This document shows, piece after piece, positions 3,615 through 64,000 of a stretch of 64,000 nt of DNA. Source of the stretch: Eledone cirrhosa (Eukaryota); assembly GCA_964016885.1 (NCBI GenBank), contig OZ024741.1:271622001-271686000 (forward strand), written 5' to 3'. Position 1 is the stretch's first letter. The number at the start of each line of letters is the position of its first letter. The notes beneath the pieces are model-generated. The model was not told the origin of the DNA, made no database searches, and saw nothing but the letters and a program-made list of their open reading frames with translations. A program made the position numbers and the translations under genes.

Positions 3615-3676
3615 AATCAAAATTCAAGCAACTTAAGTTTGACTGTATATATAATTCTGTCCATATATATTTCTAG

Positions 3677-3894
3677 GAGATTGGACCATCTTTGCACCAT
3701 CTGATCAGGCTTTTCAAGAGTTTGGCTCCAACTTTATTAACAATTTGAAGAATGACTCCGCTGCACTTGAAGCCTTTCTCAAATACCATGTTGTAAAAGG
3801 CCGATATATGTTTGAGGACCTTCAGAGAAATGATATGGAATTGGTCTCCGTTGCTGGAACGAAGATTCGCGTGAATGTTTATCGAGCAAATCGG
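3677..3894 (+). CDS. FAS1-domain protein (TGFBI/periostin-like), internal exon A
   Basis: ttctag acceptor at 3671-3676. Encodes DWTIFAPSDQAF...FLKYHVVKG...KIRVNVYRANR (FAS1 H1 TxFAP motif and YH motif). Donor gtaaaa at 3895, phase 0. Confidence 0.9.
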
Positions 3895-3924
3895 GTAAAA
3901 GAAACATTATATTATTATTACTGC

Positions 3925-19159: not shown

Positions 19160-19558
19160 GGTACACTCTGTAAAGTGGTAGTGTTGTTGCCACAATAAAA
19201 CACGCCCAGTGGACTCTGTAAAGTGGTAGTGTTGGTGTCACAGTAAAACACACCCAATAGACACTGTAAAGTGGTAGTGTTGGTGTCACAGTAAAACACA
19301 CCCAGAACACTCTGTAAAGTGGTAGTGTTGGTGTCACAGTAAAATACACCCAGTACACTCTGTAAAGTGGTAGTGTTGATGACCCAATAACATACACCCA
19401 GTACACTCTGTAAAGTGATAGTGTTGGTGCCATAATAAAAGACATCCACTGCACTCTGTAAAGTGGTAGTGTTGGTGTCACAGTAAAATACTCCCAGTAC
19501 ACTCTGTAAAGTGGTAGTGCTGGTGACACAATTGAATACACCCAGTACACTCTGTAAA
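19160..19558. repeat. Minisatellite, 48-bp unit, ~8 copies
   Basis: ctgtaaa recurs at 19168, 19216, 19264 and onward to 19552. Confidence 0.95.
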
Positions 19559-22630: not shown

Positions 22631-22811
22631 GCTTGATTTTGACGATTGATGCCACTTTTATTGTCACAAGGGGACAGAAGAAATTATTGGTACAGTAAGC
22701 AATTACTTTTTACATTGCATTTGCAAAGAATCTTAGTCATGACATGTCTGAACTCTGGATTCCCTCTTCGACTGATTATTAAACAAGAACTAGTCACCAT
22801 GTGATGAGGAC

Positions 22812-24783
22812 TCTCTCTGATTAGTTGCGCTATTACTTTTTACGTGACCTTCATGACCTGGTCGATTAATTTAATGCCTCTATAGTTACTCCTATCTAGG
22901 GCATCTCCTTTTCCCTTATAGCAGTTAACGATGATGCTGTTACGCCAGTCCTTTGGAACAACCCCATTCTGTACGACTTGGTTAACTATCCGGGTGACCA
23001 TGGTGTGTCCCACCAAACCAGATGCCTTCAGCATCTCAGCAACTATTTCCGAAGGACCAGCCGCCTTACCCGTCTTCATATCTTTGATTGCCTTGCTTAT
23101 TGTACTACCCTGGACTAACACTGCTGGTCCCTCTATTGGGTCGATGTGGGGGAGACTGTCTTTCTCCTATTTGTTCTCCTCATTTAGAAGCCTTTCGTAG
23201 TGACACTTCCAAGCTACCTTCTTATCAGCGTCGGTGATGGCAAGTATGCCATCATCGTTAAGTACACACTTCTCCCCGACAATATCACGGTTTTCCTTGA
23301 CACATTGCCTGGCAATCCTGAACACCTCACGTTTTTGGTCCTCACGTTGTAGAACATGCTTGAACTTTCTTTCCTCTGCTTCCCTTCTTGTGAAGTACAC
23401 TCGTCTCCTAGCCTCCCTCCTGGCCACTTGATAGTCTTCTCTACTTCCCCCATCCCGCCATACTTTCCAAGCCTGCCTTTTGGCCTTAATTGACTCCTCC
23501 ACCTTACTGTTCCACCACCATGTTACTCTCCTCCTACTTACAGGCCTGCTCCAGCCACAGACTTCGTCTGCCGCCGTCAGCAGGTTTGCTCTCAGGAATT
23601 CCCAGTTCCTCTATATTATACGACTCTAATTGCTCTTCCTTACTGTCGAAAGCGTCAAGTAATATGCTTTGAAATTTATTTCTGGCTATGGGGTCCTTTA
23701 GCTTCCATATTTTTCTCCTGAGGATAGTCCTCTTCCGCTGTCTAGTACGTCTCGTCCTGACTATGAGGTCGCTAATTATCAGTCTATGTTGGGAGGGATT
23801 TAGTGTTAACAACAGACACTCTGTCACGTCTTCTGGTAAGGATATAATCTACCTGGCTTGTGTGTTCCCCCGATCTATAGGTGATCAAGTGATTGTCTCG
23901 TTTTTTGAAGTTAGTGTTACAGATAGTTAAGTTATTTGCGTCGCAGAATTCCAGGATTCTGGAGCCTTCCTCATTTCTAGTACCGAACCCGTAGCCTCCA
24001 TGGATTCCGTCATAGCCGTCACAATGTTGTCCAACGTGACCATTTAGGTCGCCTGCAATAACTATATAGTCACTGTCGGTTATTTGGGAGGTAGCGAGCA
24101 TCAGTGTCTCGTAGAATCTGTCTTTTATAGCGCCGGGCAGTCCGGATTGGGGTGCGTACGCAGATATTACTGTCACCGTAGTTTTATTGAGGACAAGTCT
24201 TATTTTAATTATTCTGTCGTTCACTCTATTTACGTCTATTATCTTATCTGCCCACTTTTCTGCTAACATGATTCCTACCCCACCCAGCCCATTGTCATTT
24301 CCCATCCAGAAAAGCTTATAGCATCGTTTTTTACCCACAATGAATCTAGCAGACCCGCCCCTCCACCTGGTCTCTTGGATGCAGCAGACATCAACCTCCT
24401 TACGTTCAAGCATTTCTACAACCTCGTTTGAGCGACCTTTTAAGGTCCCTACATTCATGGTACCAACTCTGAAGTTTTGGATTGCGTTTGGCGGGTGGGG
24501 AGCAGGGAGAGGTGTGGTTGATGGGGTTGGGGTTATGTTGGCCATCCGCGGCCGCAACAAAGAGGGTGGGGCTTTGCCCTTTCGTCCGGCAGCATGAGGT
24601 GAATTTGTCGTTATCTTTTGCATTGTCTTCGGGTGTCCAGATTCTTCTGACTCTCCAGAAATTCCCAAGTTCATCCATCATATCGAAAAAGCAACCAGAA
24701 GAGCTAGCATAGGTCGTTTACTTGTGATTGGTCCAAATAATAAGGTGGAGAGTGTGGGCGGGATGGAGGGGTATGGCGTAGTT
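22812..24783 (-). mobile_element. RTE-clade LINE 5' half (5' UTR, AP endonuclease, linker, start of RT), 3'-truncated, with frameshifts and stops
   Basis: RVGTMNVGTL, CCIQETRW, ISAYAPQ, IAGDLNGHVG and SQVDYIL endonuclease motifs, then WW, KAAGPSEI and NYRGIKL. Homology ends at ~22812. Confidence 0.95.
23784..24674 (-). CDS. RTE apurinic-like endonuclease domain (pseudogenised ORF start)
   Basis: 296-aa ORF with a complete set of EEP/APE motifs. The frame is lost after KSLP because of a small deletion. Confidence 0.8.
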   Translation of the reverse strand: MNLGISGESEESGHPKTMQKITTNSPHAAGRKGKAPPSLLRPRMANITPTPSTTPLPAPHPPNAIQNFRVGTMNVGTLKGRSNEVVEMLERKEVDVCCIQETRWRGGSARFIVGKKRCYKLFWMGNDNGLGGVGIMLAEKWADKIIDVNRVNDRIIKIRLVLNKTTVTVISAYAPQSGLPGAIKDRFYETLMLATSQITDSDYIVIAGDLNGHVGQHCDGYDGIHGGYGFGTRNEEGSRILEFCDANNLTICNTNFKKRDNHLITYRSGEHTSQVDYILTRRRDRVSVVNTKSLPT

Positions 24784-27700
24784 TGCGAGGAGCAGAATTA
24801 TTTTTAGAACAACGGTGAGAAAGAACAGAATTATAGAAAGCCAATTTTGAATACGATTTTTTGATTCTGGGGGATTGTAAGATATATAGATGAATGAACC
24901 GAATGTGGAGAGTTGAGAAGAAATGGATATGTACGTTACATTTCGTAGAAGAAAACTGAACAAGCGACCATCAATAATAGGAGACAAATTCTGGGTTTAG
25001 TCCCCTGTAGCATGGCTTATTTATATTTGGTTGGCAAGGAGTGAGGAGGAGTGTGAGACCAGCGTATATGATAGAGAGAGTGAAGGGGTGAGAGGCGATT
25101 TCAGCAGCCCAAGAGAGAGAGAGGGCAATCCCTAATTTAACCTGGCATAATATCTTTTTTCCGCCAAAATGGTTGCAGGAATATTATTTAGAATTGTAGA
25201 AAGACAAACAATTATGAACATGATTTTTTTTTTATCCTGGGGGATTGTAAGATATATAGATGCGAGGAGCAGAATTATTTTTAGAACAACAGTGAGAAAG
25301 AACAGAATTATAGAAAGCCAATTTTGAATACGACTTTTTGATTCTGGGGGATTGTAAGATATATAGATGAATGAACCGAATGTGGAGAGTTGAGAAGAAA
25401 TGGATATGGACGTTACATTTCGTAGAAGAAAACTGAACAAGCGACCATCAATAATAGGAGACAAATTCTAGAACAACGGTGATATATAGATGAATGAACC
25501 GAATGTGGAGAGTTGAGAAGAAATGGATATGTACGTTACATTTCGTAGAAGAAAACTGAACAAGCGACCATCAATAATAGGAGACAAATTCTAGAACAAC
25601 GGTGAGAAAGAACAGAATTATAGAAAGCCAATTTTGAATACGATTTTTTGATTCTGGGGGATTGTAAGATATATAGATGAATGAACCGAATGTGGAGAGT
25701 TGAGAAGAAATGGATATGTACGTTACATTTCGTAGAAGAAAACTGAACAAGCGACCATCAATAATAGGAGACAAATTCTAGAATAACGGTGAGAAAGAAC
25801 AGAATTATAGAAAGCCAATTTTGAATACGATTTTTTTATTCTGGGGGGTTGTGAGATATATAGATGAATGAACCGAATGTGGGAGTTGAGAAGAAATGAA
25901 TATGTACGTTACATTTCGTAGAAGAAAACTGAACAAGCGACCATCAATAATAGGAGACAAATTCTAGAACAACGGTGAGAAAGAACAGAATTATAGAAAG
26001 CCAATTTTGAATACGATTTTTTGATTCTGGGGGATTGTAAGATATATAGATGACTGAACCGAATGTGGAGAGTTGAGAAGAAATGGTTATGTACGTTACA
26101 TTTCGTAGAAGAAAACTGAACAAGCGACCATCAATAATAGGAGACAAATTCTGGGTTTAGTCCCCTGTAGCATGGCTTATTTATATTTGGTTGGCAAGGA
26201 GTGAGGAGGAGTGTGAGACCAGCGTATATGATAGAGAGAGTGAAGGGGTGAGAGGCGATTTCAGCAGCCCAAGAGAGAGAGAGGGCAATCCCTAATTTAA
26301 CCTGGCATAATTTCTTTTTTCCGCCAAAATGGTTGCAGGAATATTATTTAGAATTGTAGAAAGACAAACAATTATGAACATGATTTTTTTTTTATCCTGG
26401 GGGATTGTAAGATATATAGATGCGAGGAGCAGAATTATTTTTAGAACAACAGTGAGAAAGAACAGAATTATAGAAAGCCAATTTTGAATACGATTTTTTG
26501 ATTCTGGGGTATTGTAAGATATATAGATGCGAGGAGCAGAATTATTTTTAGAACAACGGTGAGAAAGAACAGAATTATAGAAAGCCAATTTTGAATACGA
26601 TTTTTTGATTCTGGGGTATTGTAAGATATATAGATGCGAGGAGCAGAATTATTTTTAGAACAACGGTGAGAAAGAACAGAATTATAGAAAGCCAATTTTG
26701 AATACGATTTTTTGATTCTGGGGTATTGTAAGATATATAGATGCGAGGAGCAGAATTATTTTTAGAACAACAGTGAGAAAGAACAGAATTATAGAAAGCC
26801 AATTTTGAATACGATTTTTTGATTCTGGGGTATTGTAAGATATATAGATGCGAGGAGCAGGAGCAGAATTATTTTTAGAACAACGGTGAGAAAGAACAGA
26901 ATTATAGAAAGCCAATTTTGAATACGATTTTTTGATTCTGGGGTATTGTAAGATATATAGATGCGAGGAGCAGAATTATTTTTAGAACAACGGTGAGAAA
27001 GAACAGAATTATAGAAAGCCAATTTTGAATACGATTTTTTGATTCTGGGGTATTGTAAGATATATAGATGCGAGGAGCAGAATTATTTTTAGAACAACAG
27101 TGAGAAAGAACAGAATTATAGAAAGCCAATTTTGAATACGATTTTTTGATTCTGGGGTATTGTAAGATATATAGATGCGAGGAGCAGAATTATTTTTAGA
27201 ACAACGGTGAGAAAGAACAGAATTATAGAAAGCCAATTTTGAATACGATTTTTTGATTCTGGGGTATTGTAAGATATATAGATGCGAGGAGCAGAATTAT
27301 TTTTAGAACAACAGTGAGAAAGAACAGAATTATAGAAAGCCAATTTTGAATACGACTTTTTGATTCTGGGGGATTGTAAGATATATAGATGGATGAACCG
27401 AATGTGGAGAGTTGAGAAGAAATGGATATGTACGTTACATTTCGTAGAAGAAAACTGAACAAGCGACCATCAATAATAGGAGACAAATTCTAGAACAACT
27501 GTGAGAAAGAACAGAATTATAGAAAGCCAATTTTGAATACGATTTTTTGATTCTGGGGGATTGTAAGATATATAGATGAATGAACCGAATGTGGAGAGTT
27601 GAGAAGAAATGGATATGTACGTTACATTTCGTAGAAGAAAACTGAACAAGCGACCATCAATAATAGGAGACAAATTCTAGAACAACGGTGAGAAAGAACA

Positions 27701-30700
27701 GAATTATAGAAAGCCAATTTTGAATACGATTTTTTGATTCTGGGGGATTGTAAGATATATAGATGAATGAACCGAATGTGGAGAGTTGAGAAGAAATGGA
27801 TATGTACGTTACATTTCGTAGAAGAAAACTGAACAAGCGACCATCAATAATAGGAGACAAATTCTGGGTTTAGTCCCCTGTAGCATGGCTTATTTATATT
27901 TGGTTGGCAAGGAGTGAGGAGGAGTGTGAGACCAGCGTATATGATAGAGAGAGTGAAGGGGTGAGAGGCGATTTCAGCAGCCCAAGAGAGAGAGAGGGCA
28001 ATCCCTAATTTAACCTGGCATAATATCTTTTTTCCGCCAAAATGGTTGCAGGAATATTATTTAGAATTGTAGAAAGACAAACAATTATGAACATGATTTT
28101 TTTTTTATCCTGGGGGATTGTAAGATATATAGATGCGAGGAGCAGAATTATTTTTAGAACAACAGTGAGAAAGAACAGAATTATAGAAAGCCAATTTTGA
28201 ATACGACTTTTTGATTCTGGGGGATTGTAAGATATATAGATGAATGAACCGAATGTGGAGAATTGAGAAGAAATGGATATGGACGTTACATTTCGTAGAA
28301 GAAAACTGAACAAGCGACCATCAATAATAGGAGACAAATTCTAGAACAACGGTGATATATAGATGAATGAACCGAATGTGGAGAGTTGAGAAGAAATGGA
28401 TATGTACGTTACATTTCGTAGAAGAAAACTGAACAAGCGACCATCAATAATAGGAGACAAATTCTAGAACAACGGTGAGAAAGAACAGAATTATAGAAAG
28501 CCAATTTTGAATACGATTTTTTGATTCTGGGGGATTGTAAGATATATAGATGAATGAACCGAATGTGGAGAGTTGAGAAGAAATGGATATGTACGTTACA
28601 TTTCGTAGAAGAAAACTGAACAAGCGACCATCAATAATAGGAGACAAATTCTAGAATAACGGTGAGAAAGAACAGAATTATAGAAAGCCAATTTTGAATA
28701 CGATTTTTTTATTCTGGGGGGTTGTGAGATATATAGATGAATGAACCGAATGTGGAGAGTTGAGAAGAAATGAATATGTACGTTACATTTCGTAGAAGAA
28801 AACTGAACAAGCGACCATCAATAATAGGAGACAAATTCTAGAACAACGGTGAGAAAGAACAGAATTATAGAAAGCCAATTTTGAATACGATTTTTTGATT
28901 CTGGGGGATTGTAAGATATATAGATGACTGAACCGAATGTGGAGAGTTGAGAAGAAATGGTTATGTACGTTACATTTCGTAGAAGAAAACTGAACAAGCG
29001 ACCATCAATAATAGGAGACAAATTCTGGGTTTAGTCCCCTGTAGCATGGCTTATTTATATTTGGTTGGCAAGGAGTGAGGAGGAGTGTGAGACCAGCGTA
29101 TATGATAGAGAGAGTGAAGGGGTGAGAGGCGATTTCAGCAGCCCAAGAGAGAGAGAGGGCAATCCCTAATTTAACCTGGCATAATTTCTTTTTTCCGCCA
29201 AAATGGTTGCAGGAATATTATTTAGAATTGTAGAAAGACAAACAATTATGAACATGATTTTTTTTTTATCTTGGGGGATTGTAAGATATATAGATGCGAG
29301 GAGCAGAATTATTTTTAGAACAACAGTGAGAAAGAACAGAATTATAGAAAGCCAATTTTGAATACGATTTTTTGATTCTGGGGTATTGTAAGATATATAG
29401 ATGCGAGGAGCAGAATTATTTTTAGAACAACGGTGAGAAAGAACAGAATTATAGAAAGCCAATTTTGAATACGACTTTTTGATTCTGGGGTATTGTAAGA
29501 TATATAGATGCGAGGAGCAGAATTATTTTTAGAACAACGGTGAGAAAGAACAGAATTATAGAAAGCCAATTTTGAATACGATTTTTTGATTCTGGGGTAT
29601 TGTAAGATATATAGATGCGAGGAGCAGAATTATTTTTAGAACAACAGTGAGGAAGAACAGAATTATAGAAAGCCAATTTTGAATACGATTTTTTGATTCT
29701 GGGGTATTGTAAGATATATAGATGCGAGGAGCAGAATTATTTTTAGAACAACGGTGAGAAAGAACAGAATTATAGAAAGCCAATTTTGAATACGATTTTT
29801 TGATTCTGGGGTATTGTAAGATATATAGATGCGAGGAGCAGAATTATTTTTAGAACAACGGTGAGAAAGAACAGAATTATAGAAAGCCAATTTTGAATAC
29901 GATTTTTTGATTCTGGGGTATTGTAAGATATATAGATGCGAGGAGCAGAATTATTTTTAGAACAACAGTGAGAAAGAACAGAATTATAGAAAGCCAATTT
30001 TGAATACGATTTTTTGATTCTGGGGTATTGTAAGATATATAGATGCGAGGAGCAGAATTATTTTTAGAACAACGGTGAGAAAGAACAGAATTATAGAAAG
30101 CCAATTTTGAATACGATTTTTTGATTCTGGGGTATTGTAAGATATATAGATGCGAGGAGCAGAATTATTTTTAGAACAACAGTGAGAAAGAACAGAATTA
30201 TAGAAAGCCAATTTTGAATACGACTTTTTGATTCTGGGGGATTGTAAGATATATAGATGAATGAACCGAATGTGGAGAGTTGAGAAGAAATGGATATGTA
30301 GGTTACATTTCGTAGAAGAAAACTGAACAAGCGACCATCAATAATAGGAGACAAATTCTAGAACAACTGTGAGAAAGAACAGAATTATAGAAAGCCAATT
30401 TTGAATACGATTTTTTGATTCTGGGGGATTGTAAGATATATAGATGAATGAACCGAATGTGGAGAGTTGAGAAGAAATGGATATGTACGTTACATTTCGT
30501 AGAAGAAAACTGAACAAGCGACCATCAATAATAGGAGACAAATTCTAGAACAACGGTGAGAAAGAACAGAATTATAGAAAGCCAATTTTGAATACGATTT
30601 TTTGATTCTGGGGGATTGTAAGATATATAGATGACTGAACCGAATGTAGAGAGTTGAGAAGAAATGAATATGTACGTTACATTTCGTAGAAGAAAACTGA

Positions 30701-33700
30701 ACAAGCGACCATCAATAATAGGAGACAAATTCTGGGTTTAGTCCCCTGTAGCATGGCTTATTTATATTTGGTTGGCAAGGAGTGAGGAGGAGTGTGAGAC
30801 CAGCGTATATGATAGAGAGAGTGAAGGGGTGAGAGGCGATTTCAGCAGCCCAAGAGAGAGAGAGGGCAATCCCTAATTTAACCTGGCATAATTTCTTTTT
30901 TCCGCCAAAATGGTTGCAGGAATATTATTTAGAATTGTAGAAAGACAAACAATTATGAACATGATTTTTTTTTTATCCTGGGGGATTGTAAGATATATAG
31001 ATGCGAGGAGCAGAATTATTTTTAGAACAACGGTGAGAAAGAACAGAATTATAGAAAGCCAATTTTGAATACGATTTTTTGATTCTGGGGGATTGTAAGA
31101 TATATAGATGAATGAACCGAATGTGGAGAGTTGAGAAGAAATGGATATGTACGTTACATTTCGTAGAAGAAAACTGAACAAGCGACCATCAATAATAGGA
31201 GACAAATTCTGGGTTTAGTCCCCTGTAGCATGGCTTATTTATATTTGGTTGGCAAGGAGTGAGGAGGAGTGTGAGACCAGCGTATATGATAGAGAGAGTG
31301 AGGGGGTGAGAGGCGATTTCAGCAGGCCAAGAGAGAGAGAGGGCAATCCCTAATTTAACCTGGCATAATTTCTTTTTTCCGCCAAAATGGTTGCAGGAAT
31401 ATTATTTAGAATTGTAGAAAGACAAACAATTATGAACATGATTTTTTTTTTATCCTGGGGGATTGTAAGATATATAGATGCGAGGAGCAGAATTATTTTT
31501 AGAACAACGGTGAGAAAGAACAGAATTATAGAAAGCCAATTTTGAATACGATTTTTTGATTCTGGGGGATTGTAAGATATATAGATGAATGAACCGAATG
31601 TGGAGAGTTGAGAAGAAATGGATATGTACGTTACATTTCGTAGAAGAAAACTGAACAAGCGACCATCAATAATAGGAGACAAATTCTAGAATAACGGTGA
31701 GAAAGAACAGAATTATAGAAAGCCAATTTTGAATACGATTTTTTGATTCTGGGGGATTGTAAGATATATAGATGACTGAACCGAATGTGGAGAGTTGAGA
31801 AGAAATGGATATGTACGTTACATTTCGTAGAAGAAAACTGAACAAGCGACCATCAATAATAGGAGACAAATTCTAGAACAACGGTGATATATAGATGAAT
31901 GAACCGAATGTGGAGAGTTGAGAAGAAATGGATATGTACGTTACATTTCGTAGAAGAAAACTGAACAAGCGACCATCAATAATAGGAGACAAATTCTAGA
32001 ATAACGGTGAGAAAGAACAGAATTATAGAAAGCCAATTTTGAATACGATTTTTTGATTCTGGGGGATTGTAAGATATATAGATGACTGAACCGAATGTGG
32101 AGAGTTGAGAAGAAATGGATATGTACGTTACATTTCGTAGAAGAAAACTGAACAAGCGACCATCAATAATAGGAGACAAATTCTAGAATAACGGTGAGAA
32201 AGAACAGAATTATAGAAAGCCAATTTTGAATACGATTTTTTGATTCTGGGGGATTGTAAGATATATAGATGACTGAACCGAATGTGGAGAGTTGAGAAGA
32301 AATGGATATGTACGTTACATTTCGTAGAAGAAAACTGAACAAGCGACCATCAATAATAGGAGACAAATTCTAGAACAACGGTGATATATAGATGACTGAA
32401 CCGAATGTGGAGAGTTGAGAAGAAATGGATATGTACGTTACATTTCGTAGAAGAAAACTGAACAAGCGACCATCAATAATAGGAGACAAATTCTAGAATA
32501 ACGGTGAGAAAGAACAGAATTATAGAAAGCCAATTTTGAATACGATTTTTTGATTCTGGGGGATTGTAAGATATATAGATGACTGAACCGAATGTGGAGA
32601 GTTGAGAAGAAATGGATATGTACGTTACATTTCGTAGAAGAAAACTGAACAAGCGACCATCAATAATAGGAGACAAATTCTAGAACAACGGTGATATATA
32701 GATGAATGAACCGAATGTGGAGAGTTGAGAAGAAATGGATATGTACGTTACATTTCGTAGAAGAAAACTGAACAAGCGACCATCAATAATAGGAGACAAA
32801 TTCTAGAATAACGGTGAGAAAGAACAGAATTATAGAAAGCCAATTTTGAATACGATTTTTTGATTCTGGGGGATTGTAAGATATATAGATGACTGAACCG
32901 AATGTGGAGAGTTGAGAAGAAATGGATATGTACGTTACATTTCGTAGAAGAAAACTGAACAAGCGACCATCAATAATAGGAGACAAATTCTAGAACAACG
33001 GTGAGAAAGAACAGAATTATAGAAAGCCAATTTTGAATACGATTTTTTGATTCTGGGGGATTGTAAGATATATAGATGAATGAACCGAATGTGGAGAGTT
33101 GAGAAGAAATGGATATGTACGTTACATTTCGTAGAAGAAAACTGAACAAGCGACCATCAATAATAGGAGACAAATTCTAGAACAACGGTGAGAAAGAACA
33201 GAATTATAGAAAGCCAATTTTGAATACGATTTTTTGATTCTGGGGGATTGTAAGATATATAGATGAATGAACCGAATGTGGAGAGTTGAGAAGAAATGGA
33301 TATGTACGTTACATTTCGTAGAAGAAAACTGAACAAGCGACCATCAATAATAGGAGACAAATTCTGGGTTTAGTCCCCTGTAGCATGGCTTATTTATATT
33401 TGGTTGGCAAGGAGTGAGGAGGAGTGTGAGACCAGCGTATATGATAGAGAGAGTGAGGGGGTGAGAGGCGATTTCAGCAGGCCAAGAGAGAGAGAGGGCA
33501 ATCCCTAATTTAACCTGGCATAATTTCTTTTTTCCGCCAAAATGGTTGCAGGAATATTATTTAGAATTGTAGAAAGAGAAACAATTATGAACATGATTTT
33601 TTTTTTATCCTGGGGGATTGTAAGATATATAGATGCGAGGAGCAGAATTATTTTTAGAACAACGGTGAGAAAGAACAGAATTATAGAAAGCCAATTTTGA

Positions 33701-36700
33701 ATACGATTTTTTGATTCTGGGGGATTGTAAGATATATAGATGCGAGGAGCAGAATTATTTTTAGAACAACAGTGAGAAAGAACAGAATTATAGAAAGCCA
33801 ATTTTGAATACGACTTTTTGATTCTGGGGGATTGTAAGATATATAGATGAATGAACCGAATGTGGAAGAGTTGAGAAGAAATGGATATATACGTTACATT
33901 TCGTAGAAGAAAACTGAACAAGCGACCATCAATAATAGGAGACAAATTCTAGAATAACGGTGAGAAAGAACAGAATTATAGAAAGCCAATTTTGAATACG
34001 ATTTTTTGATTCTGGGGTATTGTAAGATATATAGATGCGAGGAGCAGAATTATTTTTAGAACAACGGTGAGAAAGAACAGAATTATAGAAAGCCAATTTT
34101 GAATACGATTTTTTGATTCTGGGGTATTGTAAGATATATAGATGCGAGGAGCAGAATTATTTTTAGAACAACGGTGAGAAAGAACAGAATTATAGAAAGC
34201 CAATTTTGAATACGATTTTTTGATTCTGGGGTATTGTAAGATATATAGATGCGAGGAGCAGAATTATTTTTAGAACAACAGTGAGAAAGAACAGAATTAT
34301 AGAAAGCCAATTTTGAATACGATTTTTTGATTCTGGGGTATTGTAAGATATATAGATGCGAGGAGCAGGAGCAGAATTATTTTTAGAACAACGGTGAGAA
34401 AGAACAGAATTATAGAAAGCCAATTTTGAATACGATTTTTTGATTCTGGGGTATTGTAAGATATATAGATGCGAGGAGCAGAATTATTTTTAGAACAACG
34501 GTGAGAAAGAACAGAATTATAGAAAGCCAATTTTGAATACGATTTTTTGATTCTGGGGTATTGTAAGATATATAGATGCGAGGAGCAGAATTATTTTTAG
34601 AACAACAGTGAGAAAGAACAGAATTATAGAAAGCCAATTTTGAATACGATTTTTTGATTCTGGGGTATTGTAAGATATATAGATGCGAGGAGCAGAATTA
34701 TTTTTAGAACAACGGTGAGAAAGAACAGAATTATAGAAAGCCAATTTTGAATACGATTTTTTGATTCTGGGGTATTGTAAGATATATAGATGCGAGGAGC
34801 AGAATTATTTTTAGAACAACAGTGAGAAAGAACAGAATTATAGAAAGCCAATTTTGAATACGACTTTTTGATTCTGGGGGATTGTAAGATATATAGATGG
34901 ATGAACCGAATGTGGAGAGTTGAGAAGAAATGGATATGTACGTTACATTTCGTAGAAGAAAACTGAACAAGCGACCATCAATAATAGGAGACAAATTCTA
35001 GAACAACTGTGAGAAAGAACAGAATTATAGAAAGCCAATTTTGAATACGATTTTTTGATTCTGGGGGATTGTAAGATATATAGATGAATGAACCGAATGT
35101 GGAGAGTTGAGAAGAAATGGATATGTACGTTACATTTCGTAGAAGAAAACTGAACAAGCGACCATCAATAATAGGAGACAAATTCTAGAACAACGGTGAG
35201 AAAGAACAGAATTATAGAAAGCCAATTTTGAATACGATTTTTTGATTCTGGGGGATTGTAAGATATATAGATGAATGAACCGAATGTGGAGAGTTGAGAA
35301 GAAATGGATATGTACGTTACATTTCGTAGAAGAAAACTGAACAAGCGACCATCAATAATAGGAGACAAATTCTGGGTTTAGTCCCCTGTAGCATGGCTTA
35401 TTTATATTTGGTTGGCAAGGAGTGAGGAGGAGTGTGAGACCAGCGTATATGATAGAGAGAGTGAAGGGGTGAGAGGCGATTTCAGCAGCCCAAGAGAGAG
35501 AGAGGGCAATCCCTAATTTAACCTGGCATAATATCTTTTTTCCGCCAAAATGGTTGCAGGAATATTATTTAGAATTGTAGAAAGACAAACAATTATGAAC
35601 ATGATTTTTTTTTTATCCTGGGGGATTGTAAGATATATAGATGCGAGGAGCAGAATTATTTTTAGAACAACAGTGAGAAAGAACAGAATTATAGAAAGCC
35701 AATTTTGAATACGACTTTTTGATTCTGGGGGATTGTAAGATATATAGATGAATGAACCGAATGTGGAGAATTGAGAAGAAATGGATATGGACGTTACATT
35801 TCGTAGAAGAAAACTGAACAAGCGACCATCAATAATAGGAGACAAATTCTAGAACAACGGTGATATATAGATGAATGAACCGAATGTGGAGAGTTGAGAA
35901 GAAATGGATATGTACGTTACATTTCGTAGAAGAAAACTGAACAAGCGACCATCAATAATAGGAGACAAATTCTAGAACAACGGTGAGAAAGAACAGAATT
36001 ATAGAAAGCCAATTTTGAATACGATTTTTTGATTCTGGGGGATTGTAAGATATATAGATGAATGAACCGAATGTGGAGAGTTGAGAAGAAATGGATATGT
36101 ACGTTACATTTCGTAGAAGAAAACTGAACAAGCGACCATCAATAATAGGAGACAAATTCTAGAATAACGGTGAGAAAGAACAGAATTATAGAAAGCCAAT
36201 TTTGAATACGATTTTTTTATTCTGGGGGGTTGTGAGATATATAGATGAATGAACCGAATGTGGAGAGTTGAGAAGAAATGAATATGTACGTTACATTTCG
36301 TAGAAGAAAACTGAACAAGCGACCATCAATAATAGGAGACAAATTCTAGAACAACGGTGAGAAAGAACAGAATTATAGAAAGCCAATTTTGAATACGATT
36401 TTTTGATTCTGGGGGATTGTAAGATATATAGATGACTGAACCGAATGTGGAGAGTTGAGAAGAAATGGTTATGTACGTTACATTTCGTAGAAGAAAACTG
36501 AACAAGCGACCATCAATAATAGGAGACAAATTCTGGGTTTAGTCCCCTGTAGCATGGCTTATTTATATTTGGTTGGCAAGGAGTGAGGAGGAGTGTGAGA
36601 CCAGCGTATATGATAGAGAGAGTGAAGGGGTGAGAGGCGATTTCAGCAGCCCAAGAGAGAGAGAGGGCAATCCCTAATTTAACCTGGCATAATTTCTTTT

Positions 36701-39700
36701 TTCCGCCAAAATGGTTGCAGGAATATTATTTAGAATTGTAGAAAGACAAACAATTATGAACATGATTTTTTTTTTATCTTGGGGGATTGTAAGATATATA
36801 GATGCGAGGAGCAGAATTATTTTTAGAACAACAGTGAGAAAGAACAGAATTATAGAAAGCCAATTTTGAATACGATTTTTTGATTCTGGGGTATTGTAAG
36901 ATATATAGATGCGAGGAGCAGAATTATTTTTAGAACAACGGTGAGAAAGAACAGAATTATAGAAAGCCAATTTTGAATACGACTTTTTGATTCTGGGGTA
37001 TTGTAAGATATATAGATGCGAGGAGCAGAATTATTTTTAGAACAACGGTGAGAAAGAACAGAATTATAGAAAGCCAATTTTGAATACGATTTTTTGATTC
37101 TGGGGTATTGTAAGATATATAGATGCGAGGAGCAGAATTATTTTTAGAACAACAGTGAGGAAGAACAGAATTATAGAAAGCCAATTTTGAATACGATTTT
37201 TTGATTCTGGGGTATTGTAAGATATATAGATGCGAGGAGCAGAATTATTTTTAGAACAACGGTGAGAAAGAACAGAATTATAGAAAGCCAATTTTGAATA
37301 CGATTTTTTGATTCTGGGGTATTGTAAGATATATAGATGCGAGGAGCAGAATTATTTTTAGAACAACGGTGAGAAAGAACAGAATTATAGAAAGCCAATT
37401 TTGAATACGATTTTTTGATTCTGGGGTATTGTAAGATATATAGATGCGAGGAGCAGAATTATTTTTAGAACAACAGTGAGAAAGAACAGAATTATAGAAA
37501 GCCAATTTTGAATACGATTTTTTGATTCTGGGGTATTGTAAGATATATAGATGCGAGGAGCAGAATTATTTTTAGAACAACGGTGAGAAAGAACAGAATT
37601 ATAGAAAGCCAATTTTGAATACGATTTTTTGATTCTGGGGTATTGTAAGATATATAGATGCGAGGAGCAGAATTATTTTTAGAACAACAGTGAGAAAGAA
37701 CAGAATTATAGAAAGCCAATTTTGAATACGACTTTTTGATTCTGGGGGATTGTAAGATATATAGATGAATGAACCGAATGTGGAGAGTTGAGAAGAAATG
37801 GATATGTAGGTTACATTTCGTAGAAGAAAACTGAACAAGCGACCATCAATAATAGGAGACAAATTCTAGAACAACTGTGAGAAAGAACAGAATTATAGAA
37901 AGCCAATTTTGAATACGATTTTTTGATTCTGGGGGATTGTAAGATATATAGATGAATGAACCGAATGTGGAGAGTTGAGAAGAAATGGATATGTACGTTA
38001 CATTTCGTAGAAGAAAACTGAACAAGCGACCATCAATAATAGGAGACAAATTCTAGAACAACGGTGAGAAAGAACAGAATTATAGAAAGCCAATTTTGAA
38101 TACGATTTTTTGATTCTGGGGGATTGTAAGATATATAGATGACTGAACCGAATGTAGAGAGTTGAGAAGAAATGAATATGTACGTTACATTTCGTAGAAG
38201 AAAACTGAACAAGCGACCATCAATAATAGGAGACAAATTCTGGGTTTAGTCCCCTGTAGCATGGCTTATTTATATTTGGTTGGCAAGGAGTGAGGAGGAG
38301 TGTGAGACCAGCGTATATGATAGAGAGAGTGAAGGGGTGAGAGGCGATTTCAGCAGCCCAAGAGAGAGAGAGGGCAATCCCTAATTTAACCTGGCATAAT
38401 TTCTTTTTTCCGCCAAAATGGTTGCAGGAATATTATTTAGAATTGTAGAAAGACAAACAATTATGAACATGATTTTTTTTTTATCCTGGGGGATTGTAAG
38501 ATATATAGATGCGAGGAGCAGAATTATTTTTAGAACAACGGTGAGAAAGAACAGAATTATAGAAAGCCAATTTTGAATACGATTTTTTGATTCTGGGGGA
38601 TTGTAAGATATATAGATGAATGAACCGAATGTGGAGAGTTGAGAAGAAATGGATATGTACGTTACATTTCGTAGAAGAAAACTGAACAAGCGACCATCAA
38701 TAATAGGAGACAAATTCTGGGTTTAGTCCCCCGTAGCATGGCTTATTTATATTTGGTTGGCAAGGAGTGAGGAGGAGTGTGAGACCAGCGTATATGATAG
38801 AGAGAGTGAGGGGGTGAGAGGCGATTTCAGCAGGCCAAGAGAGAGAGAGGGCAATCCCTAATTTAACCTGGCATAATTTCTTTTTTCCGCCAAAATGGTT
38901 GCAGGAATATTATTTAGAATTGTAGAAAGACAAACAATTATGAACATGATTTTTTTTTTATCCTGGGGGATTGTAAGATATATAGATGCGAGGAGCAGAA
39001 TTATTTTTAGAACAACGGTGAGAAAGAACAGAATTATAGAAAGCCAATTTTGAATACGATTTTTTGATTCTGGGGGATTGTAAGATATATAGATGAATGA
39101 ACCGAATGTGGAGAGTTGAGAAGAAATGGATATGTACGTTACATTTCGTAGAAGAAAACTGAACAAGCGACCATCAATAATAGGAGACAAATTCTAGAAT
39201 AACGGTGAGAAAGAACAGAATTATAGAAAGCCAATTTTGAATACGATTTTTTGATTCTGGGGGATTGTAAGATATATAGATGACTGAACCGAATGTGGAG
39301 AGTTGAGAAGAAATGGATATGTACGTTACATTTCGTAGAAGAAAACTGAACAAGCGACCATCAATAATAGGAGACAAATTCTAGAACAACGGTGATATAT
39401 AGATGAATGAACCGAATGTGGAGAGTTGAGAAGAAATGGATATGTACGTTACATTTCGTAGAAGAAAACTGAACAAGCGACCATCAATAATAGGAGACAA
39501 ATTCTAGAATAACGGTGAGAAAGAACAGAATTATAGAAAGCCAATTTTGAATACGATTTTTTGATTCTGGGGGATTGTAAGATATATAGATGACTGAACC
39601 GAATGTGGAGAGTTGAGAAGAAATGGATATGTACGTTACATTTCGTAGAAGAAAACTGAACAAGCGACCATCAATAATAGGAGACAAATTCTAGAATAAC

Positions 39701-42700
39701 GGTGAGAAAGAACAGAATTATAGAAAGCCAATTTTGAATACGATTTTTTGATTCTGGGGGATTGTAAGATATATAGATGACTGAACCGAATGTGGAGAGT
39801 TGAGAAGAAATGGATATGTACGTTACATTTCGTAGAAGAAAACTGAACAAGCGACCATCAATAATAGGAGACAAATTCTAGAACAACGGTGATATATAGA
39901 TGACTGAACCGAATGTGGAGAGTTGAGAAGAAATGGATATGTACGTTACATTTCGTAGAAGAAAACTGAACAAGCGACCATCAATAATAGGAGACAAATT
40001 CTAGAATAACGGTGAGAAAGAACAGAATTATAGAAAGCCAATTTTGAATACGATTTTTTGATTCTGGGGGATTGTAAGATATATAGATGACTGAACCGAA
40101 TGTGGAGAGTTGAGAAGAAATGGATATGTACGTTACATTTCGTAGAAGAAAACTGAACAAGCGACCATCAATAATAGGAGACAAATTCTAGAACAACGGT
40201 GATATATAGATGAATGAACCGAATGTGGAGAGTTGAGAAGAAATGGATATGTACGTTACATTTCGTAGAAGAAAACTGAACAAGCGACCATCAATAATAG
40301 GAGACAAATTCTAGAATAACGGTGAGAAAGAACAGAATTATAGAAAGCCAATTTTGAATACGATTTTTTGATTCTGGGGGATTGTAAGATATATAGATGA
40401 CTGAACCGAATGTGGAGAGTTGAGAAGAAATGGATATGTACGTTACATTTCGTAGAAGAAAACTGAACAAGCGACCATCAATAATAGGAGACAAATTCTA
40501 GAACAACGGTGAGAAAGAACAGAATTATAGAAAGCCAATTTTGAATACGATTTTTTGATTCTGGGGGATTGTAAGATATATAGATGAATGAACCGAATGT
40601 GGAGAGTTGAGAAGAAATGGATATGTACGTTACATTTCGTAGAAGAAAACTGAACAAGCGACCATCAATAATAGGAGACAAATTCTAGAACAACGGTGAG
40701 AAAGAACAGAATTATAGAAAGCCAATTTTGAATACGATTTTTTGATTCTGGGGGATTGTAAGATATATAGATGAATGAACCGAATGTGGAGAGTTGAGAA
40801 GAAATGGATATGTACGTTACATTTCGTAGAAGAAAACTGAACAAGCGACCATCAATAATAGGAGACAAATTCTGGGTTTAGTCCCCTGTAGCATGGCTTA
40901 TTTATATTTGGTTGGCAAGGAGTGAGGAGGAGTGTGAGACCAGCGTATATGATAGAGAGAGTGAGGGGGTGAGAGGCGATTTCAGCAGGCCAAGAGAGAG
41001 AGAGGGCAATCCCTAATTTAACCTGGCATAATTTCTTTTTTCCGCCAAAATGGTTGCAGGAATATTATTTAGAATTGTAGAAAGAGAAACAATTATGAAC
41101 ATGATTTTTTTTTTATCCTGGGGGATTGTAAGATATATAGATGCGAGGAGCAGAATTATTTTTAGAACAACGGTGAGAAAGAACAGAATTATAGAAAGCC
41201 AATTTTGAATACGATTTTTTGATTCTGGGGGATTGTAAGATATATAGATGCGAGGAGCAGAATTATTTTTAGAACAACAGTGAGAAAGAACAGAATTATA
41301 GAAAGCCAATTTTGAATACGACTTTTTGATTCTGGGGGATTGTAAGATATATAGATGAATGAACCGAATGTGGAAGAGTTGAGAAGAAATGGATATATAC
41401 GTTACATTTCGTAGAAGAAAACTGAACAAGCGACCATCAATAATAGGAGACAAATTCTAGAATAACGGTGAGAAAGAACAGAATTATAGAAAGCCAATTT
41501 TGAATACGATTTTTTGATTCTGGGGGATTGTAAGATATATAGATGAATGAACCGAATGTGGAGAGTTGAAAAGAAATGGATATGTACGTTACATTTCGTA
41601 GAAGAAAACTGAATAAGCGACCATCAATAATAGGAGACAAATTCTAGAACAACGGTGAGAAAGAACAGGATTATAGAAAGCCAATTTTGAATACGATTTT
41701 TTGATTCTGGGGGATTGTAAGATATATAGATGAATGAACCGAATGTGGAGAGTTGAGAAGAAATGGATATATACGTTACATTTCGTAGAAGAAAACTGAA
41801 CAAGCGACCATCAATAATAGGAGACAAATTCTAGAACAACGGTGATATATAGATGAATGAACCGAATGTGGAGAGTTGAGAAGAAATGGATATGTACGTT
41901 ACATTTCGTAGAAGAAAACTGAACAAGCGACCATCAATAATAGGAGACAAATTCTAGAACAACGGTGAGAAAGAACAGAATTATAGAAAGCCAATTTTGA
42001 ATACGATTTTTTGATTCTGGGGGATTGTAAGATATATAGATGACTGAACCGAATGTGGAGAGTTGAGAAGAAATGGATATGTACGTTACATTTCGTAGAA
42101 GAAAACTGAACAAGCGACCATCAATAATAGGAGACAAATTCTAGAATAACGGTGAGAAAGAACAGAATTATAGAAAGCCAATTTTGAATACGATTTTTTG
42201 ATTCTGGGGGATTGTAAGATATATAGATGAATGAACCGAATGTGGAGAGTTGAGAAGAAATGGATATGTACGTTACATTTCGTAGAAGAAAACTGAACAA
42301 GCGACCATCAATAATAGGAGACAAATTCTGGGTTTAGTCCCCTGTAGCATGGCTTATTTATATTTGGTTGGCAAGGAGTGAGGAGGAGTGTGAGACCAGC
42401 GTATATGATAGAGGGAGTGAGGGGGTGAGAGGCGATTTCAGCAGGCCAAGAGAGAGAGAGGGCAATCCCTAATTTAACCTGGCATAATTTCTTTTTTCCG
42501 CCAAAATGGTTGCAGGAATATTATTTAGAATTGTAGAAAGACAAACAATTATGAACATGATTTTTTTTTTATCCTGGGGGATTGTAAGATATATAGATGC
42601 GAGGAGCAGAATTATTTTTAGAACAACGGTGAGAAAGAACAGAATTATAGAAAGCCAATTTTGAATACGATTTTTTGATTCTGGGGGATTGTAAGATATA

Positions 42701-45700
42701 TAGATGAATGAACCGAATGTGGAGAGTTGAGAAGAAATGGATATATACGTTACATTTCGTAGAAGAAAACTGAACAAGCGACCATCAATAATAGGAGACA
42801 AATTCTAGAACAACGGTGATATATAGATGAATGAACCGAATGTGGAGAGTTGAGAAGAAATGCATATGTACGTTACATTTCGTAGAAGAAAACTGAACAA
42901 GCTACCATCAATAATAGGAGACAAATTCTAGAACAACGGTGAGAAAGAACAGAATTATAGAAAGCCAATTTTGAATACGATTTTTTGATTCTGGGGGATT
43001 GTAAGATATATAGATGAATGAACCGAATGTGGAGAGTTGAGAAGAAATGGATATGTACGTTACATTTCGTAGAAGAAAACTGAACAAGCGACCATCAATA
43101 ATAGGAGACAAATTCTAGAATAACGGTGAGAAAGAACAGAATTATAGAAAGCCAATTTTGAATACGATTTTTTGATTCTGGGGGATTGTAAGATATATAG
43201 ATGACTGAACCGAATGTGGAGAGTTGAGAAGAAATGGATATGTACGTTACATTTCGTAGAAGAAAACTGAACAAGCGACCATCAATAATAGGAGACAAAT
43301 TCTAGAATAACGGTGAGAAAGAACAGAATTATAGAAAGCCAATTTTGAATACGATTTTTTGATTCTGGGGGATTGTAAGATATATAGATGACTGAACCGA
43401 ATGTGGAGAGTTGAGAAGAAATGGATATGTACGTTACATTTCGTAGAAGAAAACTGAACAAGCGACCATCAATAATAGGAGACAAATTCTAGAACAACGG
43501 TGATATATAGATGAATGAACCGAATGTGGAGAGTTGAGAAGAGATGGATATGTACGTTACATTTCGTAGAAGAAAACTGAACAAGCGACCATCAATAATA
43601 GGAGACAAATTCTAGAATAACGGTGAGAAAGAACAGAATTATAGAAAGCCAATTTTGAATACGATTTTTTGATTCTGGGGGATTGTAAGATATATAGATG
43701 AATGAACCGAATGTGGAGAGTTGAGAAGAAATGGATATGTACGTTACATTTCGTAGAAGAAAACTGAACAAGCGACCATCAATAATAGGAGACAAATTCT
43801 AGAACAACGGTGAGAAAGAACAGAATTATAGAAAGCCAATTTTGAATACGATTTTTTGATTCTGGGGGATTGTAAGATATATAGATGAATGAACCGAATG
43901 TGGAGAGTTGAGAAGAAATGGATATGTACGTTACATTTCGTAGAAGAAAACTGAACAAGCGACCATCAATAATAGGAGACAAATTCTAGAATAACGGTGA
44001 GAAAGAACAGAATTATAGAAAGCCAATTTTGAATACGATTTTTTGATTCTGGAGGATTGTAAGATATATAGATGACTGAACCGAATGTGGAGAGTTGAGA
44101 AGAAATGGTTATGTACGTTACATTTCGTAGAAGAAAACTGAACAAGCGACCATCAATAATAGGAGACAAATTCTGGGTTTAGTCCCCTGTAGCATGGCTT
44201 ATTTATATTTGGTTGGCAAGGAGTGAGGAGGAGTGTGAGACCAGCGTATATGATAGAGGGAGTGAGGGGGTGAGAGGCGATTTCAGCAGGCCAAGAGAGA
44301 GAGAGGGCAATCCCTAATTTAACCTGGCATAATTTCTTTTTTCGGCCAAAATGGTTGCAGGAATATTATTTAGAATTGTAGAAAGACAAACAATTATGAA
44401 CATGATTTTTTTTTTATCCTGGGGGATTGTAAGATATATAGATGCGAGGAGCAGAATTATTTTTAGAACAACGGTGAGAAAGAACAGAATTATAGAAAGC
44501 CAATTTTGAATACGATTTTTTGATTCTGGGGGATTGTAAGATATATAGATGCGAGGAGCAGAATTATTTTTAGAACAACGGTGAGAAAGAACAGAATTAT
44601 AGAAAGCCAATTTTGAATACGACTTTTTGATTCTGGGGGATTGTAAGATATATAGATGAATGAACCGAATGTGGAGAGTTGAGAAGAAATGGATATGTAC
44701 GTTACATTTCGTAGAAGAAAACTGAACAAGCTACCATCAATAATAGGAGACAAATTCTAGAACAACAGTGATATATAGATGAATGAACCGAATGTGGAGA
44801 GTTGAGAAGAAATGGATATGTACGTTACATTTCGTAGAAGAAAACTGAACAAGCGACCATCAATAATAGGAGACAAATTCTAGAACAACGGTGAGAAAGA
44901 ACAGAATTATAGAAAGCCAATTTTGAATACGATTTTTTGATTCTGGGGGATTGTAAGATATATAGATGAATGAAGCGAATGTGGAGAGTTGAGAAGAAAT
45001 GGATATGTACGTTACATTTCGTAGAAGAAAACTGAACAAGCGACCATCAATAATAGGAGACAAATTCTAGAATAACGGTGAGAAAGAACAGAATTATAGA
45101 AAGCCAATTTTGAATACGATTTTTTGATTCTGGGGGATTGTAAGATATATAGATGACTGAACCGAATGTGGAGAGTTGAGAAGAAATGGATATGTACGTT
45201 ACATTTCGTAGAAGAAAACTGAACAAGCGACCATCAATAATAGGAGACAAATTCTAGAACAACGGTGAGAAAGAACAGAATTATAGAAAGCCAATTTTGA
45301 ATACGATTTTTTGATTCTGGGGGATTGTAAGATATATAGATGAATGAACCGAATGTGGAGAGTTGAGAAGAAATGGATATGTACGTTACATTTCGTAGAA
45401 GAAAACTGAACAAGCGACCATCAATAATAGGAGACAAATTCTAGAACAACGGTGAGAAAGAACAGAATTATAGAAAGCCAATTTTGAATACGATTTTTTG
45501 ATTCTGGGGGATTGTAAGATATATAGATGAATGAACCGAATGTGGAGAGTTGAGAAGAAATGGATATGTACGTTACATTTCGTAGAAGAAAACTGAACAA
45601 GCGACCATCAATAATAGGAGACAAATTCTAGAATAACGGTGAGAAAGAACAGAATTATAGAAAGCCAATTTTGAATACGATTTTTTGATTCTGGGGGATT

Positions 45701-48700
45701 GTAAGATATATAGATGACTGAACCGAATGTGGAGAGTTGAGAAGAAATGGATATGTACGTTACATTTCGTAGAAGAAAACTGAACAAGCGACCATCAATA
45801 ATAGGAGACAAATTCTGGGTTTAGTCCCCTGTAGCATGGCTTATTTATATTTGGTTGGCAAGGAGTGAGGAGGAGTGTGAGACCAGCGTATATGATAGAG
45901 AGAGTGAGGGGGTGAGAGGCGATTTCAGCAGGCCAAGAGAGAGAGAGGGCAATCCCTAATTTAACCTGGCATAATTTCTTTTTTCGGCCAAAATGGTTGC
46001 AGGAATATTATTTAGAATTGTAGAAAGACAAACAATTATGAACATGATTTTTTTTTTATCCTGTGGGATTGTAAGATATATAGATGCGAGGAGCAGAATT
46101 ATTTTTAGAACAACGGTGAGAAAGAACAGAATTATAGAAAGCCAATTTTGAATACGATTTTTTGATTCTGGGGGATTGTAAGATATATAGATGCGAGGAG
46201 CAGAATTATTTTTAGAACAACAGTGAGAAAGAACAGAATTATAGAAAGCCAATTTTGAATACGACTTTTTGATTCTGGGGGATTGTAAGATATATAGATG
46301 AATGAACCGAATGTGGAGAGTTGAGAAGAAATGGATATATACGTTACATTTCGTAGAAGAAAACTGAACAAGCGACCATCAATAATAGGAGACAAATTCT
46401 AGAATAACGGTGAGAAAGAACAGAATTATAGAAAGCCAATTTTGAATACGATTTTTTTATTCTGGGGGATTGTAAGATATATAGATGAATGAACCGAATG
46501 TGGAGAGTTGAGAAGAAATGGATATGTACGTTACATTTCGTAGAAGAAAACTGAACAAGCGACCATCAATAATAGGAGACAAATTCTAGAACAACGGTGA
46601 GAAAGAACAGAATTATAGAAAGCCAATTTTGAATACGATTTTTTGATTCTGGGGGATTGTAAGATATATAGATGAATGAACCGAATGTGGAGAGTTGAGA
46701 AGAAATGGATATGTACGTTACATTTCGTAGAAGAAAACTGAACAAGCGACCATCAATAATAGGAGACAAATTCTAGAACAACGGTGAGAAAGAACAGAAT
46801 TATAGAAAGCCAATTTTGAATACGATTTTTTGATTCTGGGGGATTGTAAGATATATAGATGAATGAACCGAATGTGGAGAGTTGAGAAGAAATGGATATG
46901 TACGTTACATTTCGTAGAAGAAAACTGAACAAGCGACCATCAATAATAGGAGACAAATTCTAGAATAACGGTGAGAAAGAACAGAATTATAGAAAGCCAA
47001 TTTTGAATACGATTTTTTTATTCTGGGGGATTATAAGATATATAGATGAATGAACCGAATGTGGAGAGTTGAGAAGAAATGGATATGTACGTTACATTTC
47101 GTAGAAGAAAACTGAACAAGCGACCATCAATAATAGGAGACAAATTCTAGAACAACGGTGAGAAAGAACAGAATTATAGAAAGCCAATTTTGAATACGAT
47201 TTTTTGATTCTGGGGGATTGTAAGATATATAGATGAATGAACCGAATGTGGAGAGTTGAGAAGAAATGGATATGTACGTTACATTTCGTAGAAGAAAACT
47301 GAACAAGCGACCATCAATAATAGGAGACAAATTCTAGAACAACGGTGAGAAAGAACAGAATTATAGAAAGCCAATTTTGAATACGATTTTTTGATTCTGG
47401 GGGATTGTAAGATATATAGATGAATGAACCGAATGTGGAGAGTTGAGAAGAAATGGATATGTACGTTACATTTCGTAGAAGAAAACTGAACAAGCGACCA
47501 TCAATAATAGGAGACAAATTCTAGAATAACGGTGAGAAAGAACAGAATTATAGAAAGCCAATTTTGAATACGATTTTTTGATTCTGGGGGATTGTAAGAT
47601 ATATAGATGACTGAACCGAATGTGGAGAGTTGAGAAGAAATGGATATGTACGTTACATTTCGTAGAAGAAAACTGAACAAGCGACCATCAATAATAGGAG
47701 ACAAATTCTGGGTTTAGTCCCCTGTAGCATGGCTTATTTATATTTGGTTGGCAAGGAGTGAGGAGGAGTGTGAGACCAGCGTATATGATAGAGAGAGTGA
47801 GGGGGTGAGAGGCGATTTCAGCAGGCCAAGAGAGAGAGAGGGCAATCCCTAATTTAACCTGGCATAATTTCTTTTTTCGGCCAAAATGGTTGCAGGAATA
47901 TTATTTAGAATTGTAGAAAGACAAACAATTATGAACATGATTTTTTTTTTATCCTGTGGGATTGTAAGATATATAGATGCGAGGAGCAGAATTATTTTTA
48001 GAACAACGGTGAGAAAGAACAGAATTATAGAAAGCCAATTTTGAATACGATTTTTTGATTCTGGGGGATTGTAAGATATATAGATGCGAGGAGCAGAATT
48101 ATTTTTAGAACAACAGTGAGAAAGAACAGAATTATAGAAAGCCAATTTTGAATACGACTTTTTGATTCTGGGGGATTGTAAGATATATAGATGAATGAAC
48201 CGAATGTGGAGAGTTGAGAAGAAATGGATATATACGTTACATTTCGTAGAAGAAAACTGAACAAGCGACCATCAATAATAGGAGACAAATTCTAGAATAA
48301 CGGTGAGAAAGAACAGAATTATAGAAAGCCAATTTTGAATACGATTTTTTGATTCTGGGGGATTGTAAGATATATAGCTGAATGAACCGAATGTGGAGAG
48401 TTGAGAAGAAATGGATATGTACGTTACATTTCGTAGAAGAAAACTGAACAAGCGACCATCAATAATAGGAGACAAATTCTAGAACAACGGTGATATATAG
48501 ATGAATGAACCGAATGTGGAGAGTTGAGAAGAGATGGATATGTACGTTACATTTCGTAGAAGAAAACTGAACAAGCGACCATCAATAATAGGAGACAAAT
48601 TCTAGAATAACGGTGAGAAAGAACAGAATTATAGAAAGCCAATTTTGAATACGATTTTTTGATTCTGGGGGATTGTAAGATATATAGATGAATGAACCGA

Positions 48701-63700: not shown

Positions 63701-64000
63701 TTCTGGGGGATTGTAAGATATATAGATGAATGAACCGAATGTGGAGAGTTGAGAAGAAATGGATATGTACGTTACATTTCGTAGAAGAAAACTGAACAAG
63801 CGACCATCAATAATAGGAGACAAATTCTAGAACAACGGTGAGAAAGAACAGAATTATAGAAAGCCAATTTTGAATACGATTTTTTGATTCTGGGGGATTG
63901 TAAGATATATAGATGAATGAACCGAATGTGGAGAGTTGAGAAGAAATGGATATGTACGTTACATTTCGTAGAAGAAAACTGAACAAGCGACCATCAATAA
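24784..64000. repeat. Modular satellite array (187-, 107- and 123-bp monomers plus ~290-bp spacer unit), >39 kb, open at window end
   Basis: ORF-track offsets of 187, 107, 310 (187+123) and 477 (187+290). 21 spacer units begin gggtttagtcccc, from 24993 to 60205. Copies differ by very few substitutions. Confidence 0.98.

Follow-up and report, generated by a model that had tools for sequence, protein, structure and literature searches.

Monomer promoters of long interspersed nuclear elements (LINEs) have been described mainly for vertebrate L1. The A module of TRE5-A is likewise said to repeat in tandem. This A module is a 5' promoter module (PMC5633606), and in mouse L1 (A, Tf, Gf) and rat L1 a variable number of tandem 5' units, homogeneous within a subfamily, is followed by a unique tether (PMC5381506, PMC9022269). 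In Ogre elements, which are of the long terminal repeat (LTR) type, short arrays present in dispersed copies have on rare occasions expanded in place, giving large, centromeric satellites from the 3' regions of the elements (PMC7004042; PisTR-A, PMC9659126). Here we analyse a stretch of 64,000 nucleotides (nt) of the genome of Eledone cirrhosa (assembly GCA_964016885.1, contig OZ024741.1, positions 271,622,001 to 271,686,000), hereafter the window, in which a tandem array of 47.4 kb adjoins the remains of a LINE of the RTE type. We give a probability of about 0.85 to the array being the amplified 477-bp 5' repeat of this one LINE copy. Seen by analogy, the layout resembles that of rodent L1 monomers and the expansion that of Ogre-derived satellites.

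The following features of the window define the junction.
22811..24783, minus strand: 5' half of an RTE-type body, cut off inside an older repeat (97.5% identity to intact copies).
24624..24783, minus strand: unique tether of about 160 nt, from the last unit to the first methionine of the family.
24784..64000, minus strand: tandem array of the 5' unit and its derivatives, continuing 8.15 kb past the window.
24784..25260, minus strand: proximal full 477-bp unit, the 5' repeat of the family.

A preliminary description of this DNA had proposed a direct fusion of a satellite to an RTE leader of about 110 bp, and both points are borne out. The junction lies at 24783/24784 (minus strand), with no tail and no spacer between array and body, and the stop-to-stop endonuclease frame at 23784-24677 (minus strand), which matches the Pfam domain Exo_endo_phos (E 1e-9), begins 106 bp from it. 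The RTE copy is not intact: it carries deletions of 20 bp and 2 bp and breaks off at 22811, 1995 bases into a body of about 3750. This break falls within an older dispersed repeat and, since other copies of the interrupted repeat continue upstream, points to a deletion. The host copy is dead and its 3' half gone; the missing half was not found in 24.8 kb of the window and the 10 kb further left.

To collect other copies, a repeat-free query of 384 bases of leader and body was used; 40 of 2208 candidates were scored and 30 loci fetched, the window among them. All 29 other copies, which lie on several contigs, carry between 20 and 962 bp of the unit directly upstream of the body at the identical join, and the adjacency is therefore not due to chance. 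This collection of copies, which had been suggested at the outset, thus upholds the proposal that the monomers represent a 5' untranslated region (UTR) repeat of the RTE family; as to size the proposal fails, the family unit being of 477 bp and not of 187 or 107 bp.

Among the 20 copies fetched at length, an intact frame of 1075 codons is present in four and a (GAT)n 3' tail in 19, the exception (L068) being cut ahead of the tail. The single open reading frame (ORF) matches Pfam Exo_endo_phos and RVT_1, with a PHD-like match in addition; it opens 119 nt past the last unit, and no separate ORF1 precedes the endonuclease. Judging from this architecture, the element is probably an RTE-clade non-LTR retrotransposon; the 120 homologues listed have no informative names. 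In one intact ORF (L066:2119-5346) the PHD-finger match comes immediately after the reverse transcriptase domain, an arrangement common to many relatives of 40-53% identity. In the 18 other copies scored of 32 tried, the mostly TA-rich flanks obscure any target-site duplication around the whole element with its 5' units, and no clear one was seen; at the locus itself any such duplication is masked by the missing 3' half. Four copies (L086, L088, L090, L098) have inverted or rearranged 5' parts, as is typical of twin priming.

By description, the basis of this comparison, the element is similar to RTE-2_OV of Octopus vulgaris, which has a single long ORF with endonuclease, reverse transcriptase and zinc finger, a 5' UTR of about 600 nt and a microsatellite tail; RTE-2_OV differs in its length of 1109 amino acids and its C2H2 finger, compared with 1075 codons and a PHD-like match here (PMC9115989). 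The word 'tandem' is absent from the passages on RTE-2_OV in PMC9115989. Unlike rodent L1, which combines an ORF1 with CpG-island monomers, the element here is of the RTE type with a single ORF, and the units are AT-rich, measure 343-508 bp and contain a TATA motif.

The array itself is composed of about 123 segments of 187 bp, 66 of 107 bp, 34 of 123 bp and 24 of 370 bp, with a few variants, and has a GC content of about 35%. The satellite of more than 39 kb noted in the preliminary description is thus present, and its size in the assembly is now refined to 47.4 kb, with its far end about 8.15 kb outside the window. The separate 'spacer' unit of that description is in fact part of the 477-bp unit, as is the 107-mer; the 187- and 123-mers derive from this unit and arose at the locus. 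The unit of a single dispersed copy, L083, covers 99.1% of the array at 97.9% identity. Near-identical duplications of 4-7.6 kb occur within the array, one of them holding an exact run of 4772 bp at a lag of 7508 bp.
25481..25667, minus strand: one 187-bp monomer, whose array-private internal join 25593/25592 re-enters the unit at its predicted RNA start (+1).
26439..41545, no strand: higher-order duplication with a lag of 7508 bp (7599 bp compared, 5 mismatches).
49881..63654, no strand: higher-order duplication with a lag of 9024 bp (4750 bp compared, 5 mismatches).

The joins and variants of the array are confined to it to a large extent. All 87 exact matches of the 187 join in the genome fall within the array, as do 174 of the 217 exact matches of a 28-mer of the unit; no second large array of the 477-bp unit is apparent among these 217 genome-wide matches, which show neither large arrays at several loci nor large arrays free of the element. 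Genome-wide, the 187 join is restricted to the array, and the 477-bp unit itself is dispersed with the RTE copies. When array variants were compared against 45 dispersed loci, a private spacer-start variant was found in 22 of 23 cases in the array versus 0 of 22 dispersed, and the 123 join 37 times in the array versus none dispersed; three minor array variants are also found in one to three dispersed loci, and the most distal spacer and the distal segments retain the family state. An RTE lineage tied to this satellite, as initially considered, is not what we observe, because dispersed copies lack the joins and variants that are private to the array. The body of the locus copy has 19 private substitutions in 1973 bp, compared with 5 differences in 7599 bp for the 7.5-kb duplication, which, if gene conversion is ignored, indicates that growth continued long after insertion. 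It is likely that the array expanded in place, as DNA, after the insertion.

Smaller events of the same kind are seen elsewhere in the family. L083 has six units over 2.6 kb, an in-place expansion with its own deletion derivatives. At L133 (G000:C1:236.156-236.162 Mb), an array of about 6 kb of a sister 495-bp unit, again with its own deletion-derived subunits, precedes a full-length body that is 90% identical to the 477-bp-unit family. Small local duplications within the 5' unit are present in L005, L007, L014, L016, L017 and L028; in L005, for example, a 55-bp piece occurs five or six times. Another LINE of the same genome also has a 5' array; its unit of 504/604 bp gives no blastn match to the 477-bp unit, and its body is 73-75% identical. 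Most copies have fewer than two units, and the 47 kb at this locus can be set against the extreme in mouse, where seven loci have more than 10 monomers (PMC5381506, PMC9022269).

Promoter activity has been demonstrated for mouse L1 monomers; here it is predicted from sequence. A search for RNA covering 23800-25260 listed none, a result that is neutral as to expression. Two elements of the proximal unit are concerned.
25018..25025, minus strand: TATA-like motif, whose first T lies 33 nt ahead of the predicted start.
24990..24995, minus strand: initiator-like hexamer with the predicted +1 at 24992 (consensus from PMC5287114).

The sister subfamily unit of 495 bp is 71% identical to the 477-bp unit over aligned positions (score 184, against 65 for the best of 100 shuffles). 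A search with the join as pattern gave 481 matches; from the first 100 of these, 80 new loci were fetched and 79 parsed, of which 76 match the 477-bp or the 495-bp unit. In a pool of 147 copies, which is a non-random sample and in which 5' ends were defined by self-alignment, a second unit is seen in 43, and all periods but one outlier fall between 343 and 508 bp; a library-based method underestimates the lengths in one subfamily. Of 93 units scored, 89 have a TATA motif that starts 32 or 33 nt upstream of a conserved decamer, counted to its first A, and at this A 87 of the 93 fit the initiator consensus BBCA+1BW, which is a human one; as these units were selected by the TATA and decamer motifs, the spacing is the informative part. 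The TATA range given along with this consensus is -33 to -23 (PMC5287114). Conservation among 20 units (mean identity 77%) reaches 0.96-0.97 at -40 to -21, versus 0.64-0.74 at -110 to -41.

The 5' ends of the copies bear on where the RNA starts. Where a second unit is present, 33 copies stop short of the second +1, six end within -4 to +5 of it and four extend beyond it, so that six of the 10 copies that reach the second +1 end there (P 1.4e-4). In mouse L1, 5' ends cluster at one monomer position (PMC9022269), and the family described here is comparable at the second +1 but not at the first. These data suggest that each unit probably holds a TATA plus initiator promoter and that full-length RNA would start mostly at the second +1, in which case the RNA carries one spare promoter. 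Several features count against this: the test window was fixed after five of the six pile-up copies had been seen, and the copies are only six; P rises to 5e-4 on inclusion of two rearranged multi-unit loci; the first +1 is the end point of only 3 of 115 copies, which a simple model of one promoter per unit fails to explain; most 5' ends are scattered; and the initiator consensus is short and common, the +1 block having served as anchor.

Alternatively, the +1 might be an RNA processing site (a 5' ribozyme or other cleavage) or a truncation hot spot, with a shared end point arising by chance. We consider this rather unlikely. Some RTE-clade elements do use 5' ribozymes, and Perere-3, an RTE-type element that likewise has a single ORF and whose 5' end is defined, has a twister ribozyme (PMC8501958). 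Many 5' ends also occur at AT-rich matches to the target. However, we could not find an HDV-like (hepatitis delta virus) or twister fold at the 5' end by Rfam search and folding, by which a divergent ribozyme could be missed: the best Rfam match has E 5.2 only, the 209 nt past +1 fold worse than shuffled sequences (z +1.74), and no ribozyme signal comparable to that of Perere-3 is seen. The fixed upstream distance of the TATA motif is also more in line with a promoter.

Two groups of copies have 5' ends of their own. In one subfamily, seen at 12 loci (L154, L168, L173, L174, L175, L177, L180, L189, L191, L196, L201, L224), the TATA motif precedes the body itself by 28 nt, and the body start sits at the expected +1 position. 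Four others (L151, L165, L208, L210) have a common 5' end point in the unit and share further upstream sequence, which suggests segmental duplicates or a sub-lineage that has gained a 5' part. Of 203 start-like sites within the array, 177 come after the new join and only 25 retain the TATA motif; most array units thus lack a predicted promoter, consistent with passive growth. As its copy has lost the 3' half, the array is likely passive.

Concerning the reality of the joins, a unitig of run X1 spans the 187 join without differences at a depth of 554, with 30 and 29 letters on either side, just under the 31-letter rule. An X4 contig bridges it with 93 and 46 letters at a depth of 2.9; X4 is labelled as another organism and may represent trace DNA, so it was excluded from the dating of the array. 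From another study (X17), six restriction-site-associated DNA (RAD) reads with three starts are read as the 123 join, with a short side of only 21 letters. X6 has ancestral joins only, in four contigs. For three samples the RAD cuts were at AATT-like sites, of which the 187 join is one, and 71-80% of the reads ran into unlike sequence; their depth was not used. The private joins are likely real and shared, and 47.4 kb is the length given by the assembly.

An array that is genuine but shorter, its 47 kb being partly an over-expansion by the assembly, seems improbable. The exact 4772-bp run at lag 7508 would fit over-expansion; most duplications, however, differ at several sites and there are many monomer variants, and the X1 depth of 554 at the 187 join versus 376 for the spacer-to-unit contig approximately matches the 87 versus 68 matches in the assembly, although this is a crude guide. 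The absence of several private alleles of the window from the X1 contigs still speaks against the full length, which is that of the assembly.

It is very unlikely that the locus, or a parent with a long array, was a source element whose array was passed on through RNA or given to the family. Some copies do have six or about 12 units, but neither the 45 dispersed loci scanned nor the genome-wide pattern search showed the variants of the proximal unit or the 187 and 123 joins, and the duplications inside the array are much younger than the body. We regard as highly improbable an amplification by rolling circle from a Helitron at the far border, where about 65 bp of a 5' end with a Helitron-like signature adjoins the array: no Helitron sequence is present inside an array that is to 99.1% RTE unit, and the nested mix of periods is consistent with stepwise duplication. 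Finally, that an RTE landed at the edge of a satellite already there, the alternative of the preliminary description and a conceivable one where other arrays are present in the region, is ruled out by the 29 further copies on several contigs with the unit at the same join, and by sister subfamilies that are also preceded by homologous units.

The surroundings of the array hold other repeats. Past its far end (L062, about 8.15-9.5 kb beyond the window) lie head-to-tail elements, the array beginning about 65 bp into the second; from their TC start and their end with a hairpin and CTAG we take them to be Helitron-like. The remainder of the interrupted Helitron-like element was not found in 24.8 kb of the window or the 10 kb further left. 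The region is satellite-rich, with a 41-bp array that covers at least 4.9 kb, from about 11.1 kb outside the window (also L062), a 52-bp array at window positions 1-1502 and a 48-bp array at 19161-19558. An exon-like frame at 3655-4008 (plus strand) matches the Fasciclin domain (E 2.5e-17), and the array may lie within or adjacent to a Fasciclin-domain gene.

Returning to the array as the amplified 5' repeat of one RTE-type copy, its two ends give some indication of how it was seeded. At its far end the array begins with the predicted +1, and it is at this base, to within one shared A, that the 187 join enters the unit anew, a coincidence with a chance of about 2-3 in 477. That both fall on one base suggests that the seed was made during retrotransposition, which we consider likely. 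The distal 647 bp correspond to a full-length 5' end cut 21 nt short of the body. At L155 a UTR fragment is likewise joined exactly at +1, and this is also the sole copy with an extra G at +1 of the cap-derived type. Splicing was dropped as a source of the 187 join, there being no GT donor at the upstream break.

The seed would then consist of two full-length 5' ends joined head to tail, the 647-bp piece standing ahead of a full-length copy. We see an even chance that this arrangement came from a jump of the reverse transcriptase at the end of its RNA; insertion of a second copy into the first is a possible but doubtful origin, and the lost 3' half hides the difference between the two. Such a head-to-tail join would create a 187-bp direct repeat and would account for the order of segments at both array ends. 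Repeated unequal exchange would then likely have built the runs of 187, 123 and 107 bp and the kilobase duplications.

Comparison with other systems places these features in context. In HeT-A and Penelope an upstream repeat also provides the promoter for the downstream copy, but there it belongs to the 3' end of the adjacent copy (PMC2377424), whereas we find a dedicated 5' unit. Unlike in Ogre, it is the 5' unit of a non-LTR element that has been amplified, at one locus and with a seed join at the predicted start. The passages considered from PMC13282606 and PMC2861651 and the abstract of PMC6007223 contain nothing on 5' arrays, and no title or abstract opening describing a monomer promoter in an RTE-clade element was found, in a search that left Repbase and subscription papers outside.

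Taken as a locus-private macro-array born from the 5' repeat of a LINE, to which we assign a probability of 0.85 to 0.9, the locus gives a nearly complete record of the birth of a satellite, in which the parent unit, the founding join, the two borders and later duplications that can be dated are all present. It further points to a testable answer to the question of how a LINE retains a promoter located upstream of its own start site. In a tentative scheme, which we judge possible rather than probable, the upstream TATA promoter of the RTE lineage would be left behind at each round and would be kept by the spare unit in the RNA together with a rebuilding of lost units by reverse transcriptase jumps, the same jump seeding kilobase satellites. 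Target sites of the (TA)n type would perhaps help by supplying a TATA-like box; TA-rich 5' flanks are present in 26 of the 43 multi-unit copies. If this scheme is true, the birth of a satellite would be a direct by-product of promoter renewal.

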